Shown piece after piece: positions 9,651-41,271 of a stretch of 64,000 nucleotides of DNA. Within the stretch, counting starts at the first letter, position 1. Each line of letters begins with the position of its first letter. Source of the DNA: Eubacteriales bacterium (GTDB taxonomy: Bacteria > Bacillota > Clostridia > Oscillospirales > CAG-272). The stretch covers positions 443 through 64,442 of the forward strand of contig JAZKYE010000062.1 of NCBI GenBank assembly GCA_045611965.1. Direction: 5' to 3'. Under the pieces are notes generated by a model that was not told the DNA's origin, searched no databases, and saw nothing but the letters and a program-made list of their open reading frames with translations. The translations under genes and the position numbers were made by a program.

Positions 9651-10265
9651 TTACACCGCGGGTACTGCGGGGAAAAGATTTTCAACGATACCGCCGAAGC
9701 CCATAAATGCAAGCGCAACTATCGACGCTGCGATAAGGGTTACGGGAAGGCCTCTGAAATGCTGGGGAATTCCGCTCTCCTCTATTCTCGAGCGGACACC
9801 TGCGAAGAGCACCATTGCAAGCAAAAATCCAAGTCCGCAGCCAAGCGCCGCGACGATGGACTCAAGGAAATTGTAGCCGTCGTTGATGTTGTTGATGGTT
9901 ACGCCGAGAACCGCACAGTTAGTGGTAATCAGAGGAAGATATACGCCAAGGCTCTTGTGAAGCGCGGGCATAAATTTCTTGAGCGCGATTTCAATAAACT
10001 GTACGAGTGCGGCAATAACGAGAATGAAGATTACCGTCTGAAGGTAACCGAGTCCCAGAGGCTCAAGAATAAGCATCTGGATAGGCCAGGTTGCGAGAGT
10101 TGCCATTATCATAACGAAGATAACCGACACACCCATACCCGTTGCCTGATCAAGCTTCTTGGATACGCCGAGGAACGGACAAATTCCAAGGAATCTTGAA
10201 AGAACGTAGTTATTGACGAGCACCGAGCTCATCAGGATTATAACAAGCGATCTGAAAAGCTCCAT
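9651..10265 (-). CDS. rnfA: Rnf complex subunit A
   Basis: 204-aa polytopic protein with LGICPFLGVS. Its ATG overlaps the rnfE stop (TAATG). Confidence 0.9.
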   Translation of the reverse strand: MELFRSLVIILMSSVLVNNYVLSRFLGICPFLGVSKKLDQATGMGVSVIFVMIMATLATWPIQMLILEPLGLGYLQTVIFILVIAALVQFIEIALKKFMPALHKSLGVYLPLITTNCAVLGVTINNINDGYNFLESIVAALGCGLGFLLAMVLFAGVRSRIEESGIPQHFRGLPVTLIAASIVALAFMGFGGIVENLFPAVPAV

Positions 10266-10984
10266 TATGCCTCGTCTCCTTTCTTTTCGTCAGCCGATGC
10301 ACACTCACACGCGCCGTGCGATTTGCAGACTGCGGCAGAGGGACAGCCCTCGCAGGAAAAGCTCTTTTTCTTGGGATATTTACCTTTGGTAACGAAGCTC
10401 GTGAGAGCTATCATAAGACCGAACACGAAGAAGCCGCCGGGTGCCTGCTGAAGGAAGGCAATCTTGAAGGGCTCAAGGAAAGGAATTGCGATACCGAAGA
10501 AGGTCGCGCTTCCAAGCACCTCGCGCACGGTTGCCATAAGAGCAAGAGCGACGGTGAAGCCAAGTCCCATTCCAAGTCCGTCGAGGACCGATTTGCCAAC
10601 AGAATTCTTGTTTGCGTACATTTCGGCACGGCCAAGAATTATACAGTTAACCGTTATCAGGGCGAGGTAGATACCAAGCAGCTCGTAAAGATCGGGAAGA
10701 TATGCGTGCATAATCATCTGAACGAGGGTTACGAATGCCGCGATAACGACGATATAGCAAGGAATACGGACGGTATCGGGAATAACCTTGCGAAGCAAGG
10801 AAATAACTGCGTTAGAGCACATAAGAACGACCATTGCGGCAAGTCCCATACTGATAGCGCCAAGAAGCGTCGTGGAAACCGCAAGGGTAGGACAGGTACC
10901 GAGAACGAGAACGAAAACGGGGTTTTCAAACAGAATACCGTTTAAGATAAGGTCTTTTGCAGAGCATTTCTTTTCCATTGTCAT
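10265..10984 (-). CDS. rnfE: Rnf complex subunit E, with a Cys-rich C-terminal tail
   Basis: Polytopic, with LGTCPTLAVS. The C-terminal tail is SCEGCPSAAVCKSHGACECASADEKKGDEA. Confidence 0.9.
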   Translation of the reverse strand: MTMEKKCSAKDLILNGILFENPVFVLVLGTCPTLAVSTTLLGAISMGLAAMVVLMCSNAVISLLRKVIPDTVRIPCYIVVIAAFVTLVQMIMHAYLPDLYELLGIYLALITVNCIILGRAEMYANKNSVGKSVLDGLGMGLGFTVALALMATVREVLGSATFFGIAIPFLEPFKIAFLQQAPGGFFVFGLMIALTSFVTKGKYPKKKSFSCEGCPSAAVCKSHGACECASADEKKGDEA

Positions 10985-11514
10985 TCTCCCTTCTCACCGA
11001 TTATTTTTGCCGCCTCAAGAGCCGCCTTTACTGCGTTTCTGTAAGCGAGGGTGGTCTTGGTGACACCCGACACCGTAGCGACAGTGTCTATTGTGCCAAG
11101 GTCAGCACCAACGGTGCTTTCACCGTAGGTCTTTTCTGCGCCGAGCGTTTCACCGCTCGCAAGGCATTTAGCGCCCCTTACGACACCGTTTTCGTCAATA
11201 CCGACGAGGATTACAAGTCCGGGGTTGAAGCCCGTGGTGGACAGCTTGAACACATATCCGCCAAGGTCGTCCGAATAGCCCTCGGTAACCGATGCGTCAA
11301 GGTCTGTGTGTGCAGTAAGGTCAAGGGCGGTAAAGTCGTTAGCGTCCGCGCGTACCTCTCTTAACGCCTTGTTCGTCGCTTCCTTTTCAGCCGCCTCGAT
11401 TACGGGGGCGGTAACAAAGTTAACAACAGCGAGAAGAAGCGCGCTTATAAGACAGATAACGGCAAGCACGATAACGCTCTTTGTGTATTTTGATTTCAAA
11501 AGATTAGCCATCAT
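10981..11514 (-). CDS. rnfG: Rnf complex subunit G (FMN-binding)
   Basis: N-terminal TM helix, and an FMN_bind-type C-terminus DTVATVSGVTKTTLAYRNAV. The motif reads SGVT where SGAT is usual. Confidence 0.85.
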   Translation of the reverse strand: MMANLLKSKYTKSVIVLAVICLISALLLAVVNFVTAPVIEAAEKEATNKALREVRADANDFTALDLTAHTDLDASVTEGYSDDLGGYVFKLSTTGFNPGLVILVGIDENGVVRGAKCLASGETLGAEKTYGESTVGADLGTIDTVATVSGVTKTTLAYRNAVKAALEAAKIIGEKGE

Positions 11515-21369: not shown

Positions 21370-23142
21370 ATGAAAAAGCTTTTAGCTGCTATTCTTCTTG
21401 TTGTAATGGTATTCAGCTTTGCATCCTGCGGCGTTACCAAGTCCGAGGCTCCTACCTTTGACTATCTTTACAACACTGGTGAAGGTCACAAGGCTATCGG
21501 CGAGTACCTTCAGAGTGCTCTCTCGGCAGCAGGCCTCACTATGACTCTTACCAACCAGGAATGGAACACCTTCCTTAACACCCGTAAGGACGGTGACTAC
21601 ATGGTAGCCCGCAACGGCTGGCTTGCAGACTACTCTGACCCCATCTCGTTCCTTGATATGTGGACCTCCGGCTCGGGTAACAACGACGTACAGTTCGGTA
21701 AGGGCGCTCACGCTACTCTTGCTATGTACGACCTTGACCTCACCGACATCGAGGGTTACACCCTTAAGGTTAACGACGGTACCTGGGCACAGACTTATGA
21801 CGAGCTTATCAAGCTCATCAAGGCTTGCACCGACACCAACAAGCGTTATCAGCTTATGCACAAGGCTGAGGACATGATCATGGATACCGGTTGCATTGTT
21901 CCCCTCTACTACTACACCGACATCTTCATGATCGACGATGCAGTTAAGGGATTCTTTGCTAACCCCCTTGGCTACAAGTACTTCATGTACACCACCATCG
22001 AGGGCAAGAACAGCATCAACGTATGCCTTTCTTCCGAGCCCGACACCATCGACCCCGCTCTCAACTCTGCTGTTGACGGTGCAACCATGCTTGCACACCT
22101 CTTCCAGGGTCTTGCAAAGTGGAGCCAGAAGGCTGACGGTACTCTTGAGATCGTTGCTGACGCAGCTGTTTCTCTTCCCGAGGGCGTTGTTAACGCTGAC
22201 GGAACTGTAACCTACACCTACACTCTTCGTGATGGCCTTAAGTGGTCCAACGGCGAGGCTGTTACCGCTGGTGACTTCGAGTACTCTTGGAAGAGAGCTG
22301 CTTCTAACGCACTTGCTGCTGACTACGGCTACATGTTCGAGGTTGTTAAGGGCTACGGCGAGGATGATGCTAACGGTCTTTCCAAGATCGCTGTAACCGC
22401 TAAGGACGCTAAGACCCTTGAGGTTACTCTTGCAAACTCTGTTTCCTACTGGAACGAGCTTCTTGCATTCCCCACCTACTATCCTGTACACAAGGCTACC
22501 GTAGCTTCTGAGTCTTGGGCAACTGAGGCTGCTACCTACGTATGCAACGGTCCTTACACCATCTCTGCTTGGGATCACAACAGCTGCATCACCCTTACGA
22601 AGAACACCAACTTCATTGATGCTGCTTCCATTACCATGCCTGAGATCAAGTGCTTCCTTTCTGATGATGCAAACAACATGCTCACCAACTTCAAGAATGG
22701 TACTTGGCAGCTTATCGATGACGTTCCTACCAACGAAATCGCTAACCTTGAGGTTCAGTACCCCAACGAGTACAAGGTTACCGGTCAGATCGGTACTTAC
22801 TATGTAAACTTCAACGTTAACGCAGACCTTCTTCCCAACAACACCGAGCTTACCGGTGCTGAGAAGGAAAAGGCTCAGCAGGAAATCCGTAAGGCTATCG
22901 GCCTTCTTCTTGACCGTAACTACATCTGTGAGGAAATCGGTCAGGCAGGTCAGGTTGCGGCTCCTGCATTCGTACCCATGGGTATGACTGATCCCGCTAC
23001 TGGCGACGAGTTCTACAAGAACACCGGCTTTAGCGACAAGTTTGACGGTTACTACGATGTATCTGAGGATGCATACGAGGCAAACGTTAACGCAGCTATC
23101 GAAACCCTCAAGAAGTACTACACCATTGAGGTTGCTGAATAA
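21370..23142 (+). CDS. Family-5 (OppA/DppA-like) peptide-binding lipoprotein, circularly permuted
   Basis: Lipobox VFSFASCG. Residues ~30-215 match what is normally the C-terminal lobe (EWNTFLNTRKDGDYMVARNGWLADYSDPISFLDMW...KRYQLMHKAEDMIMDTGCIVPLYYY). The canonical N-terminal region follows (INVCLSSEPDTIDPALN...YTYTLRDGLKWSNGEAVTAGDFEYSWKR). Confidence 0.85.
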   Translation: MKKLLAAILLVVMVFSFASCGVTKSEAPTFDYLYNTGEGHKAIGEYLQSALSAAGLTMTLTNQEWNTFLNTRKDGDYMVARNGWLADYSDPISFLDMWTSGSGNNDVQFGKGAHATLAMYDLDLTDIEGYTLKVNDGTWAQTYDELIKLIKACTDTNKRYQLMHKAEDMIMDTGCIVPLYYYTDIFMIDDAVKGFFANPLGYKYFMYTTIEGKNSINVCLSSEPDTIDPALNSAVDGATMLAHLFQGLAKWSQKADGTLEIVADAAVSLPEGVVNADGTVTYTYTLRDGLKWSNGEAVTAGDFEYSWKRAASNALAADYGYMFEVVKGYGEDDANGLSKIAVTAKDAKTLEVTLANSVSYWNELLAFPTYYPVHKATVASESWATEAATYVCNGPYTISAWDHNSCITLTKNTNFIDAASITMPEIKCFLSDDANNMLTNFKNGTWQLIDDVPTNEIANLEVQYPNEYKVTGQIGTYYVNFNVNADLLPNNTELTGAEKEKAQQEIRKAIGLLLDRNYICEEIGQAGQVAAPAFVPMGMTDPATGDEFYKNTGFSDKFDGYYDVSEDAYEANVNAAIETLKKYYTIEVAE

Positions 23143-23227
23143 TTCAGCGAAATTCTAAACTTCCACGCTTCTTTCCGTCTTAATTGCACATTCGGACGGA
23201 AGCTTAGGGGCTTCGCCCCATAAAAGT

Positions 23228-23278
23228 GCGGGCAACCGTGTATTCCGCAAGGGTTACACGGTTGCCCGCCTCTTTTTT
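23228..23278. terminator. Bidirectional rho-independent terminator between the opp binding-protein gene and the convergent 4-gene cluster
   Basis: GCGGGCAACCGTGTA (23228-23242) pairs with TACACGGTTGCCCGC (23255-23269). CTCTTTTTT follows on the plus strand. Confidence 0.8.
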
Positions 23279-23293
23279 ATTTAATTTTAAAGG

Positions 23294-24091
23294 CTAAATT
23301 TTGCCCGTTTTCTTTTCGTAATCTGCACACCGCGTGCGAAGGGTTTTTAAATCGACGCCCTTTATATAGGCAAGAAGATGCTGTGTCACGCGGTACATCT
23401 CGCTATCCTCAAGACCGAGCGAGATAAGCGCTGAAAGCGAGTCGTTTATCGCATCGACAAGCGTAATATAGGTATAGCCCGAGGGAAGCCTTGAAAGCAG
23501 AGATGACAGAAGATACACATCCATATCCTCGTACTCATAAGTTCCCTTAATCAGTACAATACTTTGCATCTCTCGGTACTTTCGCGCATATGCGCCTATG
23601 AGATTGCAAAAATCGTGTGGCACGCAAATTATTTCAAAAAGCTTATCCTGCACCCCGTCGTCCATCGACTTGATTTTATATGCGATATCCATACATATTC
23701 TCGCAATATGCGCCCCTTTGGGGTCGACGCGGTAGGTGAAGAGCCGTTTTGCAAGCGCCTCATCCCATTTAAGACAGACACCGTTCTGTCCTGCGCGCTC
23801 TAAAATACCGAGGTTCAGAAGCAGGGACATTTCCGCATCCCTCTCATCATAAACCGCAGTATGCGCGATAACGCGACCTATTACGGCAAGGTGCTCGTTA
23901 GTCAGCACAGAGCGCACAGAGAGAAGGTCGTAATCGGCAAAAAGCGATGCGTCCTTACCCATAAAGAAATCTATTCCCAGAGTAGGGTCCTTCAATATGC
24001 GCTCGTACAATTTCTTTGCCTCAGGATAGGAAAGCCCTCGCTCGTACTGAATTTTAGCAATGCTCAGTCCGTTGAAAAAATCTGACGTCAT
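23294..24091 (-). CDS. Hypothetical protein (265 aa) with an N-terminal FtsK-gamma-like winged-helix segment; gene D of the 4-gene cluster
   Basis: The N-terminus LSIAKIQYERGLSYPEAKKLYERILKD resembles the s.LQRrlrIGYnRAarLid.LE pattern of FtsK gamma domains. The rest is unrecognised. It overlaps gene C by 4 nt (ATGA). Confidence 0.5.
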   Translation of the reverse strand: MTSDFFNGLSIAKIQYERGLSYPEAKKLYERILKDPTLGIDFFMGKDASLFADYDLLSVRSVLTNEHLAVIGRVIAHTAVYDERDAEMSLLLNLGILERAGQNGVCLKWDEALAKRLFTYRVDPKGAHIARICMDIAYKIKSMDDGVQDKLFEIICVPHDFCNLIGAYARKYREMQSIVLIKGTYEYEDMDVYLLSSLLSRLPSGYTYITLVDAINDSLSALISLGLEDSEMYRVTQHLLAYIKGVDLKTLRTRCADYEKKTGKI

Positions 24092-24552
24092 ATAACGCCA
24101 GCCCCCTTAAGGTGCTCTAAAATATCAGCGCCGATGGTGGGATATAAAACATTATCTATAATATAGGCAAGTCCTACATTCTGAAGCTGACGCGCGTGCA
24201 TAGTAGCGAGCGCGTTTAAGCGAAGCGTCAGCACCTTGTTTATCTCTGAAATTGGCAGAGAGCCGCGACTGACGAGAGCTTCAAGAAGCGGGCCGTTTAT
24301 CTTTCGCGCCTTAATCTTGATTACAAGCTCTTCGCATACTGCCTGCGTCTTGCGAATGGGCGGGATGCGTGCGTGATCGACCTCATAGGCGTTATTATTT
24401 TTGGAAAGCCAACCCTTTTCAAGCATAAACTCGATGAGCTCGCGTGTTTTCGTATAGGTAATAGCGAGCTCGTACTGTATCTCGGGGAAGCCGATGTTAT
24501 CCCTATCCTTGCAGTAGTCAAATATCCGTCTTAAATCCTTGATATCTACCAT
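24088..24552 (-). CDS. Hypothetical small protein (154 aa) with an FtsK-gamma-like winged-helix segment; gene C of the cluster
   Basis: IGFPEIQYELAITYTKTRELIEFMLEKGWLS shares the IQYE..Y....L.E motif with gene D. A possible second wHTH lies in the C-terminal half. Confidence 0.5.
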   Translation of the reverse strand: MVDIKDLRRIFDYCKDRDNIGFPEIQYELAITYTKTRELIEFMLEKGWLSKNNNAYEVDHARIPPIRKTQAVCEELVIKIKARKINGPLLEALVSRGSLPISEINKVLTLRLNALATMHARQLQNVGLAYIIDNVLYPTIGADILEHLKGAGVI

Positions 24553-24605
24553 ATTAATCTCCGTTTTGTAGAAATGATGGGTGAATTTTCGCTACCTCGC
24601 CCTTA

Positions 24606-26282
24606 TCACTCATCATCCCCGTCGTCGGTCTGCATCGGCACGAACTCGTACTTGGGATCACCGAGCATAAAGTCGTTTGAATACTCGTAGGGTGGCTTAT
24701 TGTCAACCGAAAGCTCAGGGCACATATAGTAGCGTTCAAGGCGCGACCAGGTTACGTCTGAGTTCATCCTGGTGATAATTCCCTCGCCTATTTTAAGGCA
24801 GGAAAGCGTGCTTACGGGAATAATCGGAATGGTTTCCTTCTGATACTGGTCGATATGCTCGCCCTCACCGTTGACAGCAGACATAACCGAGTAAATGGTA
24901 TGCTCACCGCACTCCTTGGAAAATTCCTTCTTCGTTTCGGGGTTATTAGTTCCAAGAAATACGTGCATATTGAGGTTGTCCTTGATAATCTTGGCGTTGT
25001 TCTCGCCGTAGACGTTATCAAGCTGGGCGTAGGACTGAATTACCAGCCAGAACCAGATGTTTCTACCGCCGCAGGCGCTTATAACGCTGTCGAAGTCGTT
25101 GAACTTCGGCATATTTCCGAACTCGTCGAGAACGAAATAGAAGGGCGTTTTTCTCGGCTTATTGCCGTGCTTTCTCGTCATATTTATAAGGCTCTTATAA
25201 AGGTCGGTAAGGAAAAGTCCTATAATATCGTAGTAAAGCTTCGTTTCGTCCTTCATTGCGAGGAACACGGCGCAGGGCTGCTTATCGTCATCAAAATCCT
25301 CAAATGAGAAGGTGTTGGCGCAGGTAATCTGTCTTATCGCGCCGTCGTTTATCTTGGTCATAGCGGTGGCAAGGGTACTCATATAGCCGTCCTTGGTAAC
25401 CTCTGCCTTGATAAACATAAATCTCTGCACGAGGCGGTAGGCTATAGAGGTGTTCTTGTTACGTCTGTCAAAGAACGCCTCGGTAAACTCGTTATCAGCT
25501 CTACCTATTCTATCGTAAATCTCAATAAGGGTGCTAAGCGAGAAGGTTTCGCGAGTGATAACCGTGTACTTATCGCTTGGCACGCTGTCCTCAAGCATAG
25601 CGAAGATAAGTCCCTTGAAGATAGACCTCGCGCCGTTCATCCACGACACATCCTTTTCGTTTGTGCATACGCACATAACGTTGGCAATTTCCTCAACGCG
25701 GGCCTGCACCTCGTAAAGAATACTTTTCTTTATCGCATTAACAGCGCAATCAAGGCGGTGAGCGTCAGAATACTTTTTTCCTCTGAATACGTTGTAGTAC
25801 TCGTCACCTTCCTTAACTGCGGTGACGGAATCCTCGATATGAAGATACTCCTGATAAAGGTCGAATATAGGTGTCAGGGGGTTCCATCTGTCAGAGATGG
25901 ATGAGTCGATAAAGTTAAGAAGAATAATCTTGTAGCCCTGCTCTGCAAGCGTTGGCGAGAGCGAGCTGAATATCTCAAGCTTCGGGTCACAGAAAACCAT
26001 ACTGCACTTATTCTTTCTCGTTGCAAGAAAGCTACCGTAGGGGATAACAAAGGACTGCGTTTTTCCGCATCTCGTAGCGCCTATGGTAAGAACGTGCGTA
26101 TCGGGAACGGTATTTACGTAAAGCTTACCGTCATCCTTTCTGCGTATGGATATAGGTGTACCCTCAACGACGGTTTCGGGAAGCTTATCCCAGCAAACCG
26201 ACTCGCCAAGGTGCTTATCAAGCTCGGTATAATGCACGAGCCTTGTATTTTCATAATCCTTGAAAACGTCAAACTTTTTCAC
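24606..26282 (-). CDS. Soluble VirD4/TraG-like (type IV coupling protein family, FtsK-HerA superfamily) P-loop ATPase without an N-terminal TM anchor; gene B
   Basis: Walker A GATRCGKT, Walker B FYFVLDEFGNMP. The C-terminal block WLVIQSYAQLDNVYGENNAKIIKDNLNMHVFLGTNNPETKKEFSKECG is typical of TraG/VirD4. There is no hydrophobic helix in the first 60 aa. GTG start with an AAGGGGGGA RBS. Confidence 0.75.
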   Translation of the reverse strand: MKKFDVFKDYENTRLVHYTELDKHLGESVCWDKLPETVVEGTPISIRRKDDGKLYVNTVPDTHVLTIGATRCGKTQSFVIPYGSFLATRKNKCSMVFCDPKLEIFSSLSPTLAEQGYKIILLNFIDSSISDRWNPLTPIFDLYQEYLHIEDSVTAVKEGDEYYNVFRGKKYSDAHRLDCAVNAIKKSILYEVQARVEEIANVMCVCTNEKDVSWMNGARSIFKGLIFAMLEDSVPSDKYTVITRETFSLSTLIEIYDRIGRADNEFTEAFFDRRNKNTSIAYRLVQRFMFIKAEVTKDGYMSTLATAMTKINDGAIRQITCANTFSFEDFDDDKQPCAVFLAMKDETKLYYDIIGLFLTDLYKSLINMTRKHGNKPRKTPFYFVLDEFGNMPKFNDFDSVISACGGRNIWFWLVIQSYAQLDNVYGENNAKIIKDNLNMHVFLGTNNPETKKEFSKECGEHTIYSVMSAVNGEGEHIDQYQKETIPIIPVSTLSCLKIGEGIITRMNSDVTWSRLERYYMCPELSVDNKPPYEYSNDFMLGDPKYEFVPMQTDDGDDE

Positions 26283-26296
26283 AGCTAAATCCCCCC

Positions 26297-27916
26297 TTAA
26301 AAGCCAAACTTAACGGTGGTAACGCGGATGTCCTTCATAATGAGCTTGAAGGCTTCCTCGTCAACCTCGCCCTCGCGGTCCTCAAGAGCCATATACTTAA
26401 CTACCTCGTCAACGCACTCCTCAATCTGCTCGGTGGACTTGGTTTTAAGTATATCAACAACCGCATCGCAAAGAGTTACGTTCTCAATTCCGTAAGCGTC
26501 AAGGTAGCGCTCGAGTATATCGGATATAACGACACCCTTTTCCTCTGCGGTAATGGGATTCAGGCGGATTACGTCGCAATAGTCCGAGAGCGCGCCGTCA
26601 GGCTCTGCCTGCGAGAAGAGCACGGGAAGAATTCCTGACAAATCAAAGCCAAGTGAGGGCTGAAGCAGACGGAACTCTGCGCGGGTATCACCGCGAAGAT
26701 ATTTTGAGAGCATAGATACTGCCACAGGGCCTAACGCGTGGCAGGAATCTATCATAAATACAGTAGAGGTGGTGTGCGTGCTTGAAATCTCGCTGAGAAA
26801 GACGTTGTTTGCCGTCTGCGAGAAGGTATAATCGTTAAAGTGTCTTGCGTCAAGCATTCTGATTGGGTTCTTACAGAGCGCACGTCCGAGAGCGCGCTTG
26901 TACTCGTGAAGCACGTAGGCGTCACGGCAGACGAGCATCAGGGGCTTGTACTGTGGCTTTGCTCTGCCCTTGATACCGATAAGATTACGCTTGATTCTGC
27001 GAATCTCGTCCTCTCTGACAATAGCAATATCCGAAAACGCGCCCTTATCCCACACCATAGCGGTATCGGTTGCGGCATCTGCGGGAATTGCATCGTAAAG
27101 GTTCATAGTTCCCTTATTGTAGCTCTCTATTGCACGCTTTTTATCAGGCACGGGAATTGCCGAGGAATATATAATTCCCTCGAAGGTGACGTCACAGACG
27201 TGGCGCTCTACCGCACCGAGGCAGAAGGCGCGCTCAAGAAGTCCTGACGAAACGTCTGACTCGGGGGTGTCAACGCCATAGCACTCGCAAACGTACTGAA
27301 CGAGCTCTTGCGTGTCGCTACCCTTATCCGAGGCGAGAATGCGCGCGATGCACTCGCTTACGCGCGACGTATCAAAATACGCAAGAAGAAGGTTAGCGCT
27401 GATGCTGTTCCATCTTGCGGCGTGGTTGAGATTTACGACGGCGCGGCGGTGGTTTTTGCCGATGGCAATACCCGTTTCGTTAAGAAACGCAAGGGTGGTC
27501 ATAGCGGTTACGTTGCCGACTGATATGCCCTTGAGAAGCGCGTCGGTGAGAGTGTCCGGGTTGAGGTTTTCAACCTCGGGAAGAATTTCCTTTGCAGAGC
27601 GAAGCGCGATACGCTTTGCCGAGAGGATAAGCCTGTCCTCGTCGGTAAGCGAGGTGTCTATGCCACGCATCTGTGCATACTCAAGCATACGGCAGGTGCG
27701 CTCGTACTCCGCAAGCGTATTCATTCCGTAATAGTCCTCATTAAAGGAAAGGGCACGGAATTTGTTTAATTTTTCCTCATCCTTTATAAGATAAACCTTG
27801 CTGAGTATATCAAATATCTTCATCTCGCACTCGCGGTCAACAAGACCGCCGACGAGCGCGCTGACAAGATACGAGGTGCAAAGAAATTTTGAAAAAAGCT
27901 TATCTGTTGCTATCAT
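26297..27916 (-). CDS. Hypothetical 539-aa protein with N-terminal Sel1/TPR-like repeats and a C-terminal degenerate AAA+ (SpoVK/CbbX/EccA-like) module; gene A
   Basis: The C-terminal half follows the AAA+ layout, but Walker A is replaced by KPLMLVCRDAYVLHEY and Walker B by TVFMIDSCHAL. A lid-like IRLNPITAEEKGVVISDILERYL is retained. The N-terminal AMTTLAFLNETGIAIGKNHRRAVVNLNHAARWNSISANLLLAYF is Sel1-like. AAGGAG RBS 7 nt before the ATG at 27916. Confidence 0.5.
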   Translation of the reverse strand: MIATDKLFSKFLCTSYLVSALVGGLVDRECEMKIFDILSKVYLIKDEEKLNKFRALSFNEDYYGMNTLAEYERTCRMLEYAQMRGIDTSLTDEDRLILSAKRIALRSAKEILPEVENLNPDTLTDALLKGISVGNVTAMTTLAFLNETGIAIGKNHRRAVVNLNHAARWNSISANLLLAYFDTSRVSECIARILASDKGSDTQELVQYVCECYGVDTPESDVSSGLLERAFCLGAVERHVCDVTFEGIIYSSAIPVPDKKRAIESYNKGTMNLYDAIPADAATDTAMVWDKGAFSDIAIVREDEIRRIKRNLIGIKGRAKPQYKPLMLVCRDAYVLHEYKRALGRALCKNPIRMLDARHFNDYTFSQTANNVFLSEISSTHTTSTVFMIDSCHALGPVAVSMLSKYLRGDTRAEFRLLQPSLGFDLSGILPVLFSQAEPDGALSDYCDVIRLNPITAEEKGVVISDILERYLDAYGIENVTLCDAVVDILKTKSTEQIEECVDEVVKYMALEDREGEVDEEAFKLIMKDIRVTTVKFGF

Positions 27917-27967: not shown

Positions 27968-28495
27968 TCAGAAGCACCTCTTATAGTTTTCTATCGCGGC
28001 ATTGATTACCGTTACCGCTGCGCCCCTTGCCATAACCTCGTCAACCGCGGTGGTCTTGTTTTCAAGATTTTTATAAACGGTGAAGAAGTGGCGCATTTCA
28101 TCAAAAATGTGCGAGGGCAGGTCGGATATGTCCTTATAGTTGTTGTAGGTAGGGTCATTCATCGGAATGGCGATTATTTTTTCGTCAGAGCGTCCGTTAT
28201 CCACCATATTGATAACGCCGATGGGATACGCGCGTACGAGCGACATAGGCTCAAGCGGCTCTGAACACAGAAGCAGAACGTCGAGCGGGTCACCGTCATC
28301 ACCGTATGTTCTCGGTATGAAGCCGTAGTTTGCAGGATAGTGTGTAGAGGTATAGAGTATTCTGTCAAGAATGATATAGCCCGTTTCCTTGTCAAGCTCA
28401 TACTTCTTCTTGCTTCCCTTGGATATCTCGATAACGCATATAAAGTCCTCCGCCGATATGCGCTCGGGTGAAATATCGTGCCAGATGTTAGACAT
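27968..28495 (-). CDS. ppa: Inorganic pyrophosphatase, family I
   Basis: 175 aa with YPANYGFIPRTYGDDGDPLDVLLL, the family I PPase signature region. Confidence 0.9.
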   Translation of the reverse strand: MSNIWHDISPERISAEDFICVIEISKGSKKKYELDKETGYIILDRILYTSTHYPANYGFIPRTYGDDGDPLDVLLLCSEPLEPMSLVRAYPIGVINMVDNGRSDEKIIAIPMNDPTYNNYKDISDLPSHIFDEMRHFFTVYKNLENKTTAVDEVMARGAAVTVINAAIENYKRCF

Positions 28496-31443: not shown

Positions 31444-31896
31444 ATGGTTCTCACCGAAAAAGAAACAAGTCTTTTAAAGGATATGAGGTCGCAGGAAGAG
31501 TTATGTATCAAGAAGTATGAAAAATATGAGCGCGAGGCAAAATGCGAGGGGCTGAAGAAGTTGTTTTCCGAAATCAAATCGGCAGAGCAGACACACCTTC
31601 AGACCATAAGCGCTATGCTCTCAGGAAGCACACCTGAAAATCCAGCGCCCCTTTCGGCAAGCAATCAATACGCAACGGCATGCTCGTACGCAAGCAGCGA
31701 CGACAAGGATGCGGATGCGCTTTTGCTCTCTGATATGCTTGCTATGGAAAAGCACGTATCGTCACTTTATAACGTAGGAATTTTTGAATTCTGCTCTCCC
31801 GCCGTCAGAAAAATGCTCAACCACATTCAGTCAGAAGAGCAGCAGCACGGCGAGCAGCTTTTTGCGTATATGAAGGCAAACGGCATGTATTCGTAA
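31444..31896 (+). CDS. Coat F domain (spore coat protein F-like, ferritin-like fold) protein
   Basis: LTEKETSLLKDMRSQEELCIKKYEKYE... and LLSDMLAMEKHVSSLYNVGIFEFCSPAVRKMLNHIQSEEQQHGEQLF fit the two-repeat Coat_F pattern. Confidence 0.7.
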   Translation: MVLTEKETSLLKDMRSQEELCIKKYEKYEREAKCEGLKKLFSEIKSAEQTHLQTISAMLSGSTPENPAPLSASNQYATACSYASSDDKDADALLLSDMLAMEKHVSSLYNVGIFEFCSPAVRKMLNHIQSEEQQHGEQLFAYMKANGMYS

Positions 31897-34065: not shown

Positions 34066-37000
34066 TCAGCTCTTTTTTAAAACGCATTCAAGCTGATACT
34101 TTTTCGCGCTCTCTGCGTAGCTGTAGAGAGTCTTGATAAGTGAAAGTGCGCTCTTCTTTGCCGCGTTTTCGTCGCTGTTTTCAAGTGCCTCTACATACTG
34201 GATGTAGGACAGCGAGTTAAACTCGGTAATAAAGTCGGTCACGGGGTCATAGGTAAGATCGTCACCGTTGCCGTCAACACCGATAACGATATCCGCGTTA
34301 AAGTCGTAAACCTTGGACTCAAGCTCGTAGAAGTCAAGTCCGTCAGACGTAGCAATACCGTTGATCTCCGTTACAATACCGTTCTCGACGTAAATAAAGT
34401 TCTCGACAAGGGTGCCCTTTGCGCTTGCGTAAGAAAATCTTATCATAGCACTTAGCGTCGGTGCGAAGGTAAATCTGAAGCGTGTCGAGGGCATCGAAAT
34501 ATTAACCGTGACTCCCGTGATGTACTGCGAGATACCCTCGGGGGTCTTGGCTGTATTCTTCGGTGCGAATTCGCTCGGTGTGAAGCCTGCCGCGAGTGCC
34601 GCATTAAGCGCCGCCGCTACCCTCTCGGGTGCTGCCTTTCCTTGATAGAGATATGCTGCCTTTATATATGCGAGCATATCGGTTACCATCTGCTTCGCCT
34701 CTGTCGGATCGTCTTTATTATCTATAACCTTCGTAGCATACTTGGGCACGGAATAGGTCCATTTTGCCGTATGCTGCTTCTGGAATGCGTCAGGGGCAGC
34801 TACGGGTATGACTATCGAGAATTTAATCTCATCATCTGCGTTGAATACCGATATATCCTCGATTGCTATACGGTAGTATTCTTTGCCGTCGTACTCGTAG
34901 TACACGTGGTTTGCAACCTTTCCGTCAGCACCCCATACGGGCTTGAGAGTAGGAATGAAGCTTTTGGATTCGGTCTTGTAAATAACCTCGCCGCCCTCCT
35001 TAAACGAAACTACTGATGCAGGCACATAGATATTGTAGGTAAAGTTGTCAGTAATGCTCAGATTCGATTTAAGCGAGAAATCCGACTTGGTTTTCATAAC
35101 GCATACAGTTCTGTCGGAATCAAGGCTTATAGGATACCTCGGATTAGCAAGAGACAGCGACTCGGTACGCTCAATGCCCGATATCTTCCAGATGAACTTA
35201 TATACGCCTTCCCTTGCGTAATCGAGGTTAGTTTGCTCGATTGATATGGGGCTTCCCTCACCCTTCTCAATGCTCGCGTTATCGTTTTTCGCAGGGGATA
35301 TCATACCGCTTGTCGCAAGAGATGGATCCTCGGTATAGTTAATCCATCTTACGGTAGTTTCACCGTCAGCGAGGGTTACGACCTCAAGTATGTCGTCAAG
35401 CACGAAGGTTCTGCTGTTGAGGTTCGATGTGGCGTTATTGAAGGGCACGGTGATAATGTTGTCACCGCTGTATCTGAATTTCAGTAGCTCGTTTACCCTG
35501 CCGAATTTTGCGTTTTCGAATGCTTTTCCGTTATAGGTAATACCAGAGTGGTTGATAAAATAATCTGCCTTAACTCCATTGGAATTTTTGTTCACAACGG
35601 CTGATGTATGATTGTTGCCGTTAAGATTAATTTTTCCGCTGAAGCTTGCGCCCTCATCATCCACGCCTATGCAGGCAAGAACACAGTTCGTTCTGACACC
35701 GCTCAGGTTTATCGTACCGCTGAACGCAGGAACGTTAACGGTTTGTGTGACGCCGCTCAAATCGACATAAGAATAGGTTGAGGATGCGCCCATTTTATTC
35801 GCAAGGTAGGTGTACTCGGTGAGCGAAACCAGATTAGAATCCTCTATATTCACCACCGCGCTCTCCGTGTTGACGTTGAAGAACGGACCGATATACATCG
35901 TGCCGAAATCGACGCCCTTGAAGTTAAGGCGGGTGTTTTCCGAAAGAGGACGCACAACGAAGAGTCCTGAATAGTCACTGCCCGACTTTACGAATCTGCC
36001 GCCATTCACTGCGTTGACGGTATTATTCTTGCCACGGATATCCGCAATACACGACGAGAAAAGACCTACGTTGCCACCGAGAATGTTAACGACGTTGCCC
36101 TCGCTATGCGGTCCGTCACCCATATGGAATATCGCGCCTGACAAAGTGCTCAAGTCGATTCCTGCGAATATTTCACCGCCGGGAAGCGAGGAAAGAACGT
36201 TCATCGTCGATGCTTCTGCCGCACTCGTGTTATTGAAGTGGAATATCTTCTTGCCATTATCCTCTGATGCACAACGGATAACGGCGAGCCTTGCGCCGTA
36301 AAGGTCGAGCGTCAGGGTTTTGGAATTTATGGGCATCTGCGTATCAGACGTTAACGTAACGTTCTCGCGAAGCTGAATTTTACCGCCGCTCTGAAGCGAG
36401 TTGAAGTCGCTTGCGAACTGCGTCTGGTCAACCGAGTATTTAGTCGCATTTTCGAGCTCCTGCGTGCCGCCGTTATTCCATACTACGTAAACTATCGTTT
36501 TATATACGGCATACAGCTCCTTTTCACCAACCGGTCCCGTAGTCTGATAGGGCTCTGCACCGTCGCTCGTGCCACTCCACGCAACGGGCGCGTAAAGAGT
36601 ATCGTCGCCCGCCGTAGCCGACGGGATGTATTTATTTCTATACTGCGTTTTTATCGGTTGGTTCCACAAAAGCTCGGTAGGATACGAGATGTAAGTGCCG
36701 CCGTATGCGTCATACTCGTTCATTCCGATAACCGAGGTATAGAGGTCAGAGAAGGTATATACTCCGCCCGAGGCGGTGTAGCCGAGAGTTTCCTTAACGG
36801 TGTAATTCTTGAACGTAGCGCTTCCCGTCTGCTTTATTCTGACGGGGTAGTTTATCGCCGTTCCGCTCTCGCTTTTAATAAGATCCACCGTGGAATAATT
36901 GGTCGTGTTATCGTTTATCGCGGCAGTTGTGTTTGTATAATACTTTCCGTACATCTTGCCCTCGGGGGTTACGATGTAGTTCGCGTATGCGCCCATATTC

Positions 37001-40000
37001 GTGCTTGGGTCAGCAGGCGCAGGCGGATTTAAGAAAGTCGAGCCGAAATAATATTCTGTTCCCTGCGTCTTATAGTTGTAGGTTCCGACGGTGTAATTTT
37101 TGAAGCATATATTCGAGCCGATAGCGTAGTTTTTGTCAGGCACGAGATTAAAGCGCAGAGCATCGTATAACACAGGAACTGCGAAAAAGATGTTCCTTTG
37201 AGTACCGACGTGCGAGCTGTTAATGTATAGATCGGCATACGCCTTATCGTAACTATCCTCAAGATAAACCACGAATTTCAGTCTGTTCCAGCTCGTATTT
37301 GCGAGCTTGACGCCACCGCTACCCGCAGCACTCTGCGAGTGGGTTCTCAGATAAACGTCACTTCCGACCGTATCGAAATATGCCGAAACCTTCGTGGTAA
37401 CAAGGTTTTCTTTTCCATCCTCACAACGAATGGTTATATAAGAGCCGTTTCCAATATATTTTAAATCGGTTTTGATATCAATCTCAAACACCATAATATC
37501 GTAGGCGGGATTTTTTCCGGATGAATTGTAAAGAGTGATATCACCGACCTTATCCACGCCTGCTTCCTTGTAGGTGCCTCGTATCAGCAGGTGCGAATCA
37601 AGGCCCGCAGGAACGTCTACGGTTACACCGCCGTCCGTGGAATGCTTGTTGCCAAAGCTTGTATCCGAATTAATGGGGTCCTGAATCTGGAATTTAAGGA
37701 AGCTTCCCTCATCGGAAAGATGCGCCGAGGACAGCTTGCTATCGGAAAGAAGTTCTGCGTCCGAGCCCGAAACCTTATCTGCCGCAGAGAAGTATTTTGC
37801 AGCACCGCCGAGGTTAGCAGGATTTGAGAACATTGCCGCGTCAAGCGCCGAGCTACGAAGGATTGTCTGATTGTTTTCCATCTGCTTTATGATGGCTTCT
37901 TCATCCTTATAGGTATAAAGAGCGTAATCTCTGAAGCAAATATTATCACCGATACCATAGGTCTGATCTACGGCGACGTTGAAGCGCAGAGCATCGTAGT
38001 ATCTCGGTACCTCAGCAAAAAGGTTTACACCGTCACCACCGCCTACCCTGCCGATATGCATTCCAACGAGATAAAAATCAACGTAGTTATCCTTATAATC
38101 GCTGAACAAATTAAGCACCATGGTAATGGTCTGCCACGTACCGTCTTTAACGAGTAGAAGACCGCCCTGACCGTAAGGATACTCGTTATTGGTTCCTCTG
38201 TCAACCACCTGTTCATACGTTCTCACATACGTTTTGTAGCTATTGGCGGCCTCATCCAGGTCCTCGTAAAAATACAGCGACATAAAATTTTTTATCGGAT
38301 TTGATCCGCCATTGGAAAAGCGGAAGGTAAGGACTGAACCATTCCTGATAAAATTCGAATCGGTTTTTATATCAACCTCGAATATCACTTTCTGGTATTG
38401 CGGTGTCGTACCCGCATCGTTATATAAGCGCAGCAATTGCGAGGATGTCGTGCCGCGCATAAGAAGATACGAGTCAAGGCCGCTCGGAATCGTTACAGTT
38501 TTGCCGCCGTCCGTGGAATGCTTATTACCGTAGGCGGTGCTGGATGCCGTGGGATTCTGAATTTCAAATTTAATATAATCGCCCTCATCAGTGAGTCTTA
38601 ACGCTGAGTACTTCTGATTAGGGTTGTTCTGGTCTGCCATCGTACTGCTCTCGGTGTCTTTAAAGTACTTAAGAGCACCTACCACGTCAGGGCTTGCTAC
38701 GGCATCCAGCTCTGAGCTGCGCTGCTTTGTTGAGACGCTGACAAAATTAGCAAGGTTAATGTAAAGCTGATTCGACGTACGTACCGAATACGAGTCAAAG
38801 CATATGGATTCGCCATAATCAAGCCTTGCGTCAGTGCTTACATTATATCTGAAGCCGCTTATCGCCTCGGTTCCGGCCGGCAGAACGTTGTTGTCCGTGC
38901 CAACGTGGGTGCCGTCAATATAGTAATGCACGCTTGAATGCGCGCCCGTCGTACCCGTATCGACAAAGCTTCCGCCTTGATTCTTGATATAGGTTCCGTT
39001 CTCCGACAAAGTATACGTCGAGCCCGACTTCGAGTAACGCCTATCACCCGTAGTATCGGAAAGCTCAAGAACGATAGTAAGCCTGTACCACTGACCTTTA
39101 CTCTTGTTCACCTCATATAAAAGACTCGTAGCGGTATTGGCATTCTTCTGGGTGGTGGTGCGAAGATAAACGCCACCCGACGCCTCGTAGAAGCGCAGCA
39201 TCGAATTATGCTCTGCGAGCTCAGCGTTCTCGAAGGCGGCACGGAAGGTGAAATTTGAGCCATTCGAAAGAAACGTCGAGTCGGTCTTGAAGTGAATTTC
39301 CATAGCAAAGTATCTGAACTTCGCCTTGCCTCTTTTATCGTAAATAAAGGTTCTGTCAACCGCCTCGCTCGCACCGTCGTTGGTGCGCCTGCCGTGCACG
39401 ATGAAATATGATGGCACGACAGTCTTTATTGTATCAGCATCAACGTATCCCGGTTTGCCTGACGCGGTATAGTAGGTGTTAGAGGGTTTAGCGACGTGAA
39501 GCTTGATGTAGCCGCCGTCCTTTGACGGGGATGACGACGAATTTGCCATCGACGTCACCTTGATAGGCGACCTGCCCGTGGTGGTAGTGAGTCCGTCACG
39601 CGCTTCCTGAACGGTGGTGTTATCAGTGCCGTAATAATTGTATCTGATGCTGTATTCGGCCGTGCCCGTACCCGTACTCCACAATGCGTCGTGAAGGCTC
39701 ACTATTCCGTACTTATACGTGAGATCGTCGTATATAGGTGCAATAATGTAGTTGTCCTGCGTGCCGTACTGGACGGACGTGAAGTTACAATTCTTTTGGA
39801 TCTGACAGTTAAATCTGACAGTATCCTCAAGCAGGAAATAATCAGCGGCATCACCTGCCTCATTTTCGGTGTCCTTATCGTCACTTGCCCATAGCAATCC
39901 CGCGATGCCGTACATATCGCAGTTGTTAAAGTAAAACTTCGCGCCCCTGCCTCTGACTACCGAATTTTCCGAGGGAATCATGTAACTCCGATCGGTATCG

Positions 40001-41202: not shown

Positions 41203-41271
41203 ATGGTATCTCCTGTATGTGTGTATTCTTCGCGCACGAGGGCGCGCAGACAATTAGTTTTATCCAAATAT

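Follow-up and report, generated by a model that had tools for sequence, protein, structure and literature searches.

A 64,000-nt stretch of DNA from a Eubacteriales bacterium (hereafter the window) carries four tightly spaced genes, A to D, one of which encodes a motor of the type that serves conjugation, and no conjugation gene lies nearby. What such a motor and its three companions might do was addressed by comparing the cluster with its orthologous loci, and by profile and structure searches with the encoded proteins.

A four-gene cluster among housekeeping genes

The cluster and its borders are as follows.

23180-23270, no strand assigned: GC-rich hairpin and T-run between D and the convergent oppA-like gene
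23294-24091, minus strand: gene D (265 aa)
24088-24552, minus strand: gene C (154 aa)
24606-26282, minus strand: gene B (558 aa, GTG start)
26297-27916, minus strand: gene A (539 aa)
27968-28495, minus strand: ppa, inorganic pyrophosphatase (PF00719, 6.5e-61)

The coordinates confirm the arrangement given in the preliminary description, with four minus-strand reading frames between ppa and the opp terminator, gaps of 14 nt (A-B) and 53 nt (B-C), and a 4-nt ATGA overlap of C and D. A CapD-like gene (PF02719) accompanies ppa on the upstream side, and the convergent gene downstream is OppA-like (PF00496). All four genes are real, since A and B have many homologues and their start positions match the N-termini of these. 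Read directly, the minus-strand letters after D run GCGGGCAACCGTGT...ACACGGTTGCCCGC, then ACTTTTAT, forming a strong hairpin that is followed by a T-run and is probably a bidirectional terminator closing the cluster. A hairpin was likewise looked for in the 51-nt spacer between ppa and A and none is present, in agreement with the earlier reading, and ppa and A may be co-transcribed. The cluster has the GC content of its flanks and shows no integrase, transposase or tRNA boundary. A Coat F spore-coat protein is encoded nearby, and the host is thus probably a spore-former.

In a close relative (locus L002) the cluster likewise lies between ppa and the opp genes; in a more distant one (L003) it is near ppa with other genes downstream, Rnf being among the neighbours. 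Searches of sequenced plasmids, phages and viral contigs (IMG/VR) gave no orthologue of A or B, and nothing was found to indicate horizontal mobility of the cassette or a location inside a defence island. Conjugation genes are missing here, as had been noted for the window, and also from every orthologous locus; specifically, relaxase, VirB4 and integrase are absent from all of the approximately 10 distinct loci.

A membrane-free motor paired with a Lon-type pseudo-AAA+ protein

Domains and motifs of A and B that bear on function are listed here.

25113-25133, minus strand: Walker B of B
26058-26081, minus strand: Walker A of B
26300-26311, minus strand: C-terminal KFGF motif of A, a candidate ClpP-docking peptide (family version [I/F/Y]-G-F-G-G)
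26351-27034, minus strand: Lon-type AAA+ module of A, approximately aa 295-522, catalytically degenerate (sequence and fold)
27272-27664, minus strand: Sel1-like repeat region of A, approximately aa 85-215 (family profile and AF2 paired helices)

Judged from its profile matches, B is a cytoplasmic P-loop ATPase of the VirD4/TraG type (FtsK-HerA superfamily) with intact motifs, as first described. It matches PF02534 (T4SS-DNA_transf, 1.6e-40), PF12696 (TraG-D_C, 1.3e-28) and PF10412 (TrwB_AAD_bind, 6.7e-17), contains GATRCGKT (aa 68-75), VLDEFGN (aa 384-390) and IQSYAQL (aa 415-421), and has Cag-beta (8dol) and TrwB (1e9r) as its closest solved structures. No segment passes as transmembrane in a Kyte-Doolittle 19-residue window, and a conserved FKDYEN peptide stands where the membrane anchor would be. 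B has more than 1000 homologues. Within the soluble family, mean column identity is 67% and the catalytic motifs are intact; the nearest other relatives (at most 31-35% identity) nearly all carry N-terminal transmembrane segments, typically two, and neither A nor ClpP is ever found near them. Plasmid-borne relatives are at most 30% identical and lie mostly on conjugative plasmids.

A single A sequence matches no family, and its own family, an orphan of 268 clusters (at 50% identity, all of approximately 530-555 aa), is modelled in neither Pfam nor NCBIfam. Nevertheless, the PDB matches of the family profile include Sel1 proteins at E = 1.2e-10 and, at E = 1.6e-7, the Lon AAA+ module, which identifies A as a protein with a Sel1/alpha-solenoid region at its N-terminus, a LonA-type pseudo-AAA+ module behind it and no protease domain. 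Profile positions 87-178 align with the Sel1 repeat proteins 6ok3, 5b26 and 8ket, the AF2 model (136-sequence MSA; pLDDT 96.1, pTM 0.89) has paired helices across this region, and five of 77 family members match Pfam Sel1 individually. When the model was compared with the PDB using Foldseek, all of the top 50 matches were Lon. Thus, the earlier proposal of Sel1 repeats ahead of a degenerate AAA+ domain is borne out, whereas its assignment of that domain to the SpoVK/CbbX/EccA type must be rejected, since the Foldseek and profile matches all point to Lon. The Walker A position reads YKPLMLVC-RDAY (26927-26950) and lacks GK[ST], with only two of 136 family members matching a Walker A regular expression; hydrophobic or variable residues occupy the Walker B positions (FMIDSC, 26741-26758); and a conserved Cys (YCDV, 26570-26581) aligns with the arginine of Lon LRDRME. 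With Walker A, Walker B and the arginine finger lost, the AAA+ module is, to judge by these motifs, catalytically dead throughout the family.

The two proteins are strictly paired. A lies directly upstream of B in all 14 loci reached through soluble B, and the reverse check on the loci of three distant A members found a downstream reading frame in the B position each time, an HMM-confirmed full B in L095 and only a short unverified fragment in L094 and L098. Of the two proteins A evolves faster, at 23-27% identity across genera versus 44-48% for B.

A ClpP paralogue and fast-evolving winged-helix proteins

A ClpP paralogue is encoded directly upstream of A, often overlapping it, in seven of 11 distinct loci (L004/5, L006-8, L009, L010/11, L012/13, L094 and L095). 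In the subclade of the window (the window, L002, L003 and L098), ppa or an opposite-strand gene stands upstream of A, where clpP is found elsewhere; no ClpP gene exists in the 64-kb window, and none adjoins A in the subclade. At approximately 213 bits, the paralogues fall short of both ClpP cutoffs (249 and 308.6 bits). The Ser-His-Asp triad is retained, but the docking pocket has changed, its canonical hydrophobic residues Y60, Y62 and F82 being replaced, and there are also a 7-8 residue insertion and a remodelled N-terminus. By sequence they look like divergent but catalytically intact peptidases dedicated to this operon.

The tail of A offers a possible counterpart. In 125 of 140 family members GF is found within 16 residues of the C-terminus, typically as [I/F/Y]GFGG, and G538 is nearly invariant. 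This motif resembles the GIGFG of the E. coli ClpX IGF loop (GSGIGFGAT) and, by analogy, is a candidate ClpP-docking peptide. The motif is short, and because the pocket residues Y60, Y62 and F82 are replaced, the analogy may not hold in detail. The last residue of B is aromatic in 107 of 119 members. A and B alike have tails that differ between ClpP-linked and ClpP-less clades, and in the window subclade A ends in FGF-COOH while the B tail is acidic (DDGDDE in the window copy). Given that no ClpP is encoded in the window or next to A in its subclade, the proteolytic link is indirect for the window locus.

Gene C carries the following two domains.

24367-24540, minus strand: first winged helix (wH1), approximately aa 5-62, FtsK-gamma-like
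within C, minus strand: second winged helix (wH2), approximately aa 82-145 (hhalign 74.5%)

On profile evidence C is a tandem winged-helix protein whose first domain is FtsK-gamma-like and whose second is a weaker match. The resemblance to the gamma domain is modest: FtsK_gamma (E = 0.029) and HTH_45 (E = 0.022) are both sub-threshold in Pfam, and the five top PDB matches of a C-type domain profile are all FtsK gamma, the best being 2j5p at E = 1.4e-3. The same domain profile finds C-type domains in downstream genes of L003, L006, L009, L012, L038 and L095, and in none of approximately 80 loci with transmembrane-type coupling proteins (T4CPs); they were seen in soluble-B loci only.

D matches no family. 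It is a very fast-evolving, paralogue-like protein with a partial gamma-like helix-turn-helix core (aa 9-35), a helical C-terminal extension and a probable second winged helix. The winged-helix profile matches it at E = 4.8e-4, and its hhalign comparison with the C-type domain covers 27 columns (85%, E = 6.5e-6). In MAFFT alignments D spans the full length of 284-299 aa proteins from L003, L009 and L012, at a mere 13-18% identity. Both C and D had been called FtsK-gamma-like, which stands for C and for D is limited to the 27-residue core. The shared IQYE segment is present in both (PEIQYE, aa 23-28 of C; KIQYE, aa 13-17 of D), but the kinship is visible at profile level only, pairwise BLASTP being non-significant (E = 0.15). 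Compared with L002, C is 42% and D (a syntenic orthologue) 28% identical, whereas B is 87% and the flanking genes are 72-96% identical. C and D therefore diverge far faster than their neighbours and are the fastest-evolving genes of the region.

What is conserved is not A-B-C-D as a cassette but the A-B pair; a dedicated ClpP paralogue usually stands ahead of it, and one or two fast-evolving winged-helix proteins usually go with it. The full operon runs clpP paralogue, A, B, gamma-like winged-helix gene(s), and the window cluster is a lineage-specific variant of it, chromosomal and non-conjugative, with no adjacent clpP. The operon is widespread in uncultured Clostridia of the gut and rumen; its hosts carry few source labels, which are Ruminococcus, Ruminococcaceae/Oscillospiraceae or simply Clostridia. 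It is so far undescribed, no account of such a system having been found in the literature.

Possible functions and comparison with known systems

The link to ClpP, which is invisible from the window alone, alters the functional reading of the cluster. We tentatively favour, at a confidence somewhat short of even, a ClpP-linked, DNA-associated machine for ATP-dependent remodelling or proteolysis, and we infer all of the physical contacts, oligomeric states, DNA binding, proteolysis and biological role that it would involve. B would be an active hexameric ATPase, derived from T4CPs, that became cytoplasmic on losing its anchor. A would be a catalytically dead Lon-type AAA+ ring or adaptor that carries a Sel1 protein-binding platform and docks a ClpP-type peptidase through its C-terminal [I/F/Y]GFGG peptide. 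C and D, with tandem winged helices and an FtsK-gamma-like first domain, might confer DNA or client specificity while evolving very fast. ATP hydrolysis by B could then drive DNA tracking, or the extraction of DNA-bound or other clients for degradation by ClpP, although feeding a protease is not a known activity of T4CP-type motors. In the window subclade, where clpP is not adjacent, A ends in FGF-COOH and the B tail is acidic, the module may borrow a ClpP encoded elsewhere or may have moved to protease-independent remodelling.

Alternatively, the cluster could defend against phages or plasmids, with B tracking or pumping invading DNA, C and D acting as hypervariable sensors of foreign DNA or protein, and A, with or without ClpP, serving as effector or regulator. 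This account shares its architecture with the remodelling machine and differs in biological role. The extreme divergence of C and D within an otherwise conserved syntenic block, and the faster evolution of A relative to B, would fit such a role. Moreover, the L009 operon holds a CARF-PD-(D/E)xK nuclease between B and the winged-helix gene (PADLOC, 8.9e-28), genes for macro, ADP-ribosylglycohydrolase, metallophosphatase and VWA-kinase proteins recur nearby across loci, and B weakly matches mad8 of MADS (PADLOC, 4e-9, 34 bits). However, the PADLOC check, which the preliminary description had suggested, returned no model for A and none convincing for B, C or D, the winged-helix match of C being marginal; among ten neighbouring proteins, eight had no match and a ninth a marginal one. 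The cluster also keeps its place among housekeeping genes (ppa, capD and opp in L002; Rnf in L003), shows neither mobility genes, a tRNA boundary nor deviant GC, and is absent from plasmids, phages and IMG/VR. We consider a defence role possible but on the unlikely side.

Less likely still is a housekeeping DNA translocase or segregation system that operates with no proteolysis, a split FtsK with B as the motor, C and D as gamma-like readers of DNA motifs that act in trans, and A as a scaffold; its role could be chromosome handling in division or sporulation. The gamma-like domain of C, the superfamily of B, the chromosomal and syntenic context, the Coat F gene of a probable spore-former and the lack of adjacent clpP in the window subclade are consistent with this idea. 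Yet motif readers are expected to be conserved, and C and D are the fastest-evolving genes of the region; the idea would explain neither the ClpP linkage seen in seven of 11 lineages nor the resemblance of the A tail to ClpX; and none of the loci has a linked recombinase or partition gene.

A secretion pair of the EccA/EccC kind, handing substrates to a membrane translocon encoded elsewhere, is very improbable. A TPR-like plus AAA+ protein beside an FtsK-like ATPase offers a formal analogy, the one drawn in the preliminary description, and T4CPs are able to recruit protein substrates, but the AAA+ module of A is inactive and Lon-type, B has no transmembrane segments, translocon, WXG and T7SS genes were not found nearby, and linkage to ClpP suggests degradation rather than export. 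Least credible is a decayed ICE or T4SS remnant, with B a truncated coupling protein left orphaned and the other three genes unrelated cargo: the best curated matches of B are conjugative VirD4 proteins of the CD1115 family and its plasmid relatives lie mostly on conjugative plasmids, but this reading is largely refuted by the invariable pairing with A, the conservation and intact motifs of a large soluble family, the conserved N-terminal peptide in place of a membrane domain, a sub-cutoff CD1115 score (228.6 bits against 250 for NCBIfam conju_CD1115) and the consistent lack of relaxase, VirB4 and integrase.

The operon can be compared with several known systems. EccA is an active CbbX-type AAA+ protein, unlike A, and EccC is membrane-anchored with three ATPase domains. 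Defence systems that couple a HerA/FtsK-type ATPase to an effector, and MADS, share a soluble FtsK-HerA-superfamily ATPase with this locus, but the other MADS genes, NurA, Sir2 and DUF4297-type effectors are absent here, and A and the winged-helix proteins have no counterpart in them. With ClpXP, ClpAP and LonA the operon shares the LonA AAA+ fold and ClpX-IGF-like tail of A and, in most lineages, a neighbouring ClpP-family peptidase. A has nevertheless lost the ATPase motifs and has no Lon protease domain; docking pocket and N-terminus are remodelled in the ClpP paralogue, and no clpP adjoins the window cluster; and where those proteases use an AAA+ unfoldase, the only active ATPase here is a T4CP-type motor with a RecA fold.

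The type IV coupling proteins (VirD4, TrwB, TraD, TraG; CD1115) have the same nucleotide-binding and all-alpha domains as B (PF02534, PF10412, PF12696), and their Walker A, Walker B and IQSYAQL regions are conserved in it. The C-terminal tail of F-plasmid TraD binds the DNA-binding accessory protein TraM; B likewise has a flexible charged tail, aromatic-ended in most members. B differs in its lack of the anchor and of relaxase, VirB4 or T4SS neighbours, its sub-cutoff CD1115 score, its distance from transmembrane-bearing (at most 35% identity) and plasmid-borne relatives, and its strict pairing with A and usual company of ClpP. Finally, FtsK and SpoIIIE likewise join a motor of the FtsK-HerA superfamily to a gamma-type winged helix, which in FtsK recognises DNA motifs and makes contact with partner proteins. 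Here, by contrast, the motor is of VirD4 rather than FtsK_SpoIIIE type, and the gamma-like domain resides on separate, fast-diverging proteins, where it is tandem-duplicated and fused to variable C-terminal regions.

A four-gene cluster with a membrane-free coupling-protein ATPase

The cluster comprises four consecutive minus-strand genes between ppa and the opp genes:

26297-27916, minus strand: gene A, 539 aa, Sel1 repeats and a Lon-like AAA+ module
24606-26282, minus strand: gene B, 558 aa, GTG start, soluble VirD4-type ATPase
24088-24552, minus strand: gene C, 154 aa, winged-helix protein
23294-24091, minus strand: gene D, 265 aa, winged-helix protein

The ORF list reproduces the layout given in the preliminary description, with gaps of 14 nt between A and B and 53 nt between B and C, and an overlap of 4 nt between C and D. 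The 5′ flank consists of ppa (PF00719) and a CapD-like gene (PF02719), whereas the 3′ flank is a convergent OppA-like gene (PF00496), with a GC-rich hairpin and T-run located after D. No terminator had been seen between ppa and A, and indeed the 51-nt spacer between them contains no hairpin, so that read-through from ppa is possible. The GC content of the cluster (47-50%) is the same as that of its flanks, and the nearest tRNAs are 35 kb away; these two tRNAs are all that an Rfam scan of the window returned.

Several features of the surroundings were also recorded. A Coat F / rubrerythrin-like spore-coat gene (31444-31896, plus strand) points to a source organism that forms endospores. A giant ORF of 2395 aa (34066-41253, minus strand, TTG start) located about 6 kb from the cluster has no Pfam match at E ≤ 1e-3. 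The OppA-like lipoprotein (21370-23142, plus strand, 590 aa) matches SBP_bac_5 only across residues 274-549, and, judged by eye, its first ~200 residues resemble the C-terminal portion of binding proteins of this type, pointing to a permuted or duplicated arrangement. An assembly artefact can be dismissed, since the related locus L002 carries a 591-aa counterpart with 90% identity. Long antisense ORFs within B (for example 24855-25307, plus strand) and within the opp genes group together in an all-versus-all comparison of related loci, but were rejected as genes because they are conserved only through the sense genes and are thus artefacts.

Gene B encodes the P-loop nucleotide-binding domain and the all-alpha domain of type IV coupling proteins, with Pfam matches to T4SS-DNA_transf (1.6e-40), TraG-D_C (1.3e-28) and TrwB_AAD_bind (6.7e-17). 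Its Walker A (GATRCGKT) and Walker B (VLDEFGN) motifs are intact and invariant across homologues, and its nearest solved structures are H. pylori Cag-beta and TrwB. The best NCBIfam model, NF045973 (VirD4-like conjugal transfer protein, Firmicute CD1115 family), gives 228.6 bits, under its 250-bit cutoff. The absence of N-terminal transmembrane (TM) helices, proposed in the preliminary description, is borne out by a hydropathy scan, in which neither B nor any of 13 orthologues showed a hydrophobic window of 19 residues. Where the anchor would be, the soluble family instead carries a nearly invariant N-terminal peptide, (F)KDYEN. The C-terminal tail is charged and ends in F-x-F, LF or YF in 107 of 119 members, although the window protein and its closest relatives have an acidic tail, DDGDDE, instead.

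A single genome contig scan recovered two close relatives and no more. The metagenome scan was seeded with the B alignment, the A alignment being too divergent, and the matches listed were mostly TM-type coupling proteins. At E ≤ 1e-3 the B family contains 1141 clusters (90% identity), the best 120 of which are all ~540-600 aa, and where the source names such a protein it is called a 'type IV secretory system conjugative DNA transfer family protein' (Clostridia, Ruminococcaceae and Oscillospiraceae MAGs). The next-nearest relatives listed from metagenomes are at most 31-35% identical, 640-870 aa long, and nearly all equipped with N-terminal TM segments, typically two.

HMMs for A, B and ClpP were run over the ORFs of all fetched loci. 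Gene A lies directly 5′ of soluble B on the same strand in all 14 soluble-B loci, and is absent from all of the ~80 loci with TM-type relatives of B. No relaxase, VirB4 or other T4SS gene is present in the window flanks, as had been claimed, or in the Pfam-annotated neighbourhoods of the related loci L003-L013 and L095. A remnant of an integrative conjugative element, which the domains of B might bring to mind, was rejected, given the missing anchor, the lack of conjugation neighbours and the conserved A-B pair. It is very likely that A and B, with or without a winged-helix gene, constitute a conserved, non-conjugative module.

Among the nearest TM-bearing relatives of B (L015-L042; 31-35% identity), one locus was checked. 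There (L025, 279-15355), the flanks encode two GHKL histidine kinases, a LytTR response regulator and four ORFs without a Pfam match (818, 570, 608 and 689 aa), and the locus has no VirB4 or relaxase gene and no recognisable conjugative context. This relative may represent another non-canonical use of a coupling protein.

An inactive Lon-type partner and a ClpP paralogue

As a single sequence, A matches no Pfam, NCBIfam, PHROG or PADLOC model, and PHROGs gave nothing meaningful. Because A diverges quickly, word-indexed searches found only two or three homologues and an exhaustive HMMER search was needed, which revealed a family of 268 clusters at 50% identity, nearly all 530-555 aa and aligned end to end. 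Despite this size, neither Pfam nor NCBIfam holds a model for the family. A 77-member profile matches solved Sel1-repeat proteins at positions 87-178 (6ok3, E 1.2e-10; SEL1L, 2.4e-8) and the Lon AAA+ module at positions 288-522 (human LONP1, 1.6e-7; bacterial Lon, 7e-5). The Pfam Sel1 model is matched individually by 5 of the 77 members, but not by window A alone. The profile has 56 PDB sequence matches, and those that are AAA+ proteins are all Lon or clamp loaders.

An AlphaFold2 model of A made with a 136-sequence alignment reached pLDDT 96.1 and pTM 0.89, compared with pLDDT 34 for the single-sequence model, and the top 50 Foldseek matches listed against the PDB are all LonA (E down to 1e-8; 6n2i, TMt 0.59). 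An AAA+ module of the EccA/CbbX/SpoVK type was rejected, as none occurs among these 50. Thus, the preliminary view of A as Sel1 repeats plus a degenerate AAA+ scaffold holds for the repeats and the degeneracy, but the clade is Lon (HCLR).

At the Walker A position the family consensus is P-L-C-x-S-D-S-x-Y, and a Walker A regex fits only 2 of 136 members. The acidic pair of Walker B is replaced by hydrophobic or variable residues, and the arginine of the Lon LRDRME segment by a conserved cysteine. Judged by these substitutions, the AAA+ module is inactive across the family. Nor is there a Lon protease (S16 Ser-Lys) domain in A, which has no Lon_C match and stops right after the AAA+ lid.

A ClpP-family gene of ~200 aa is found directly 5′ of A in 7 of 11 distinct lineages (loci L004/5, L006-8, L009, L010/11, L012/13, L094 and L095). 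The last two were reached from distant A members: L095 has the order clpP-A-B-winged helix with overlapping stops and starts, and L094 has a clpP fragment and A followed by a short ORF at the putative B position. The A-linked ClpPs score ~213 bits against NCBIfam ClpP models, whose cutoffs of 249 and 308.6 they do not reach. Their Ser-His-Asp triad is retained, a 7-8-residue insertion and a divergent N-terminus set them apart, and the docking-pocket residues Y60, Y62, F82, M92 and F112 of canonical ClpP are substituted. On these features they have the appearance of dedicated paralogues, not of the housekeeping enzyme. No ClpP is encoded anywhere in the 64-kb window, and in its subclade (the window, L002, L003 and L098; B at least 60% identical in full-length comparisons) the position directly 5′ of A is occupied by ppa or by an opposite-strand gene. 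The comparison of loci shows strict co-inheritance of A and B and frequent operonic linkage to a specialised ClpP that, with its triad kept, is predicted to be catalytically intact.

The C-terminus of A offers a candidate contact. GF occurs within the last 16 residues of 125 of 140 A proteins, typically as [I/F/Y]GFGG plus a short tail, and in the ClpP-less subclade A ends exactly in (K/R)FGF-COOH (KFGF-COOH in the window). In E. coli ClpX (K-12 genome), the IGF loop that docks ClpP reads GSGIGFGAT. This likeness, together with synteny, suggests that A may dock the ClpP ring through a C-terminal peptide. Given the altered pocket of the ClpP paralogue, the details of docking may differ from those of ClpXP.

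Two ClpP-linked loci (L010, 12579-14657; L012, 9762-11830) have a similar run of four small genes 3′ of B (~270, 80-90, 159 and 157 aa) without Pfam matches. Only the 80-90 aa gene is linked by BLAST between the two; it is also present in L009 (9827-10102). These genes may be further accessory components in the ClpP-linked clade.

Winged-helix proteins and a possible role in defence

On its own, C gives only sub-threshold Pfam matches (HTH_45, 0.022; FtsK_gamma, PF09397, 0.029, 14.5 bits against a 30.6 cutoff). By iterative search, its first ~75 residues recur at the N-terminus of proteins encoded 3′ of soluble B, namely those in L003 (299 aa), L006 (416 aa), L009 (284 aa), L038 and L095 (171 aa), and two tandem paralogues in L012 (293 and 296 aa). 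None of the TM-type loci has this domain, and the C-termini of the proteins that carry it are variable. Both C and D had been described as FtsK-gamma-like. For C, the five best PDB matches of the domain profile are all FtsK gamma (best 2j5p, E 1.4e-3, collinear over helices 1-3), and a second, weaker winged helix was detected by hhalign (74.5%). For D the likeness extends only to a 27-residue core, which aligns with the C-type domain over 27 columns (hhalign 85%, E 6.5e-6; HMM E 4.8e-4). In a MAFFT alignment D spans the 284-299 aa proteins, with only 13-18% identity, and a full-length D-type profile had a weak match to FtsK gamma as its only PDB hit. An hhalign comparison of the alignments A8 and A6 was left out, since shared sequences make them non-independent.

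These two genes change quickly. Between the window and L002, which has the cluster in the same position, flanking proteins are 72-96% identical, B 87%, A 69%, C 42% and D 28%. In the C-D segment (window 23294-24552; L002 11671-12953), divergence or cassette replacement is concentrated locally, amid perfectly syntenic flanking genes. Such turnover is expected of specificity subunits or of subunits exposed to conflict.

A role in defence, one of the functions raised in the preliminary description, would require no architecture other than that of the ClpP-linked reading taken up below. No system was matched significantly in PADLOC (PADLOC-DB v2): B matches mad8 at just 34 bits and C matches WH_III-A at E 0.012, and A and D have no match. 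For ten neighbouring proteins, eight had no match and a ninth was marginal. The MADS preprint gives no domain description of mad8. One locus does have a clear link to known immune signalling, the sole such case in any locus: in L009, a CARF-PD-(D/E)xK (Card1/Can2-like) nuclease gene (10121-11242, plus strand; PADLOC CARF4--CARF_PDDEXK, 8.9e-28) lies within the operon, with B on one side and the winged-helix gene on the other. Genes for macro, ADP-ribosylglycohydrolase, metallophosphatase and VWA-kinase proteins also recur near the module.

With respect to mobility, A has no tblastn match in 72,556 plasmids or 50,697 phage genomes. The best plasmid relatives of B are at most 30% identical and mostly conjugative coupling proteins, and its IMG/VR relatives are 25-28% identical over most of the protein, apart from one short 37% fragment. 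The module is still near ppa in L003, and in more distant loci it resides among unrelated housekeeping genes, without integrases. Taken together, the mobility, PADLOC and neighbourhood results leave defence possible but unproven, and we consider it rather unlikely.

A few kb 3′ of the module, L004 (16177-20954) and L010 (14689-16496), from two different lineages, each have one or two VWA_4 genes preceded by an HTH_3 gene, a recurrence that may reflect inherited synteny or a functional link. Ser/Thr kinase genes come after the VWA_4 genes in L004, but not in L010.

Proposed mechanism and comparison with known systems

We tentatively view the module as a ClpP-linked, DNA-associated remodelling or proteolysis machine, a reading whose prospects we place slightly short of even. 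B would form hexamers and perform ATP-driven translocation on DNA or polypeptide clients, and C and D, by means of their gamma-like domain, would bring this motor to specific targets or to DNA. A parallel to such recruitment would be the FtsK gamma domain, or the TraD tail as bound by TraM, which is a DNA-binding protein. A would link the motor to ClpP and bind clients or the B tail through its Sel1 platform. The result might be removal or degradation of DNA-associated proteins, or a protease switched on by foreign DNA. The window lineage would have lost its adjacent clpP and changed both tails, and its module would either use a ClpP encoded elsewhere or act without proteolysis.

In its strongest form, this proposal describes a new class of ATP-dependent protease or remodeller, in which a coupling-protein-type FtsK-HerA motor, not an AAA+ unfoldase, would serve a dedicated ClpP via a dead Lon-like adaptor with a ClpX-like docking peptide, and would be steered to DNA or DNA-bound clients by hypervariable FtsK-gamma-like winged-helix subunits. 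We regard this full form as improbable. A plausible use of such a machine, if it exists, would be against mobile genetic elements in gut Clostridia.

The whole system occurs solely in uncultured gut and rumen Clostridia and so represents sizeable functional dark matter, for which the hypervariable C and D provide a concrete entry point to what the system recognises. In the literature we found no description of a combination of ClpP, VirD4 and Sel1, of a soluble VirD4, of conflict systems joining FtsK-HerA and Lon-like proteins, or of a standalone FtsK gamma domain. The parts are known folds, and the motor is an exapted coupling protein.

Coupling proteins are the textbook membrane gatekeepers of conjugation. 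B shares their domains and Walker motifs, but differs in having neither a TM anchor nor linkage to a T4SS. The recruitment of a whole membrane-free clade, large and conserved, into a cytoplasmic complex would widen the known roles of this motor family, and it cautions against using soluble B genes as conjugation markers in gut metagenome annotation. With LonA protease, A shares the AAA+ fold, but lacks a functional Walker A, Walker B, Arg finger and protease domain. The Clp unfoldases (ClpX, ClpA and ClpC) dock through [LIV]-G-[FL]; the A family has [I/F/Y]GFGG and the paralogous ClpP an altered pocket. An adjacent clpP is missing beside window A but present in 7 of the 11 related lineages. 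Should the link to ClpP be physical, the module would represent the first ClpP machine with a non-AAA+ motor and a clear case of an adaptor made from a pseudo-ATPase Lon module, and if the motor indeed drives ClpP, the system would be categorically new.
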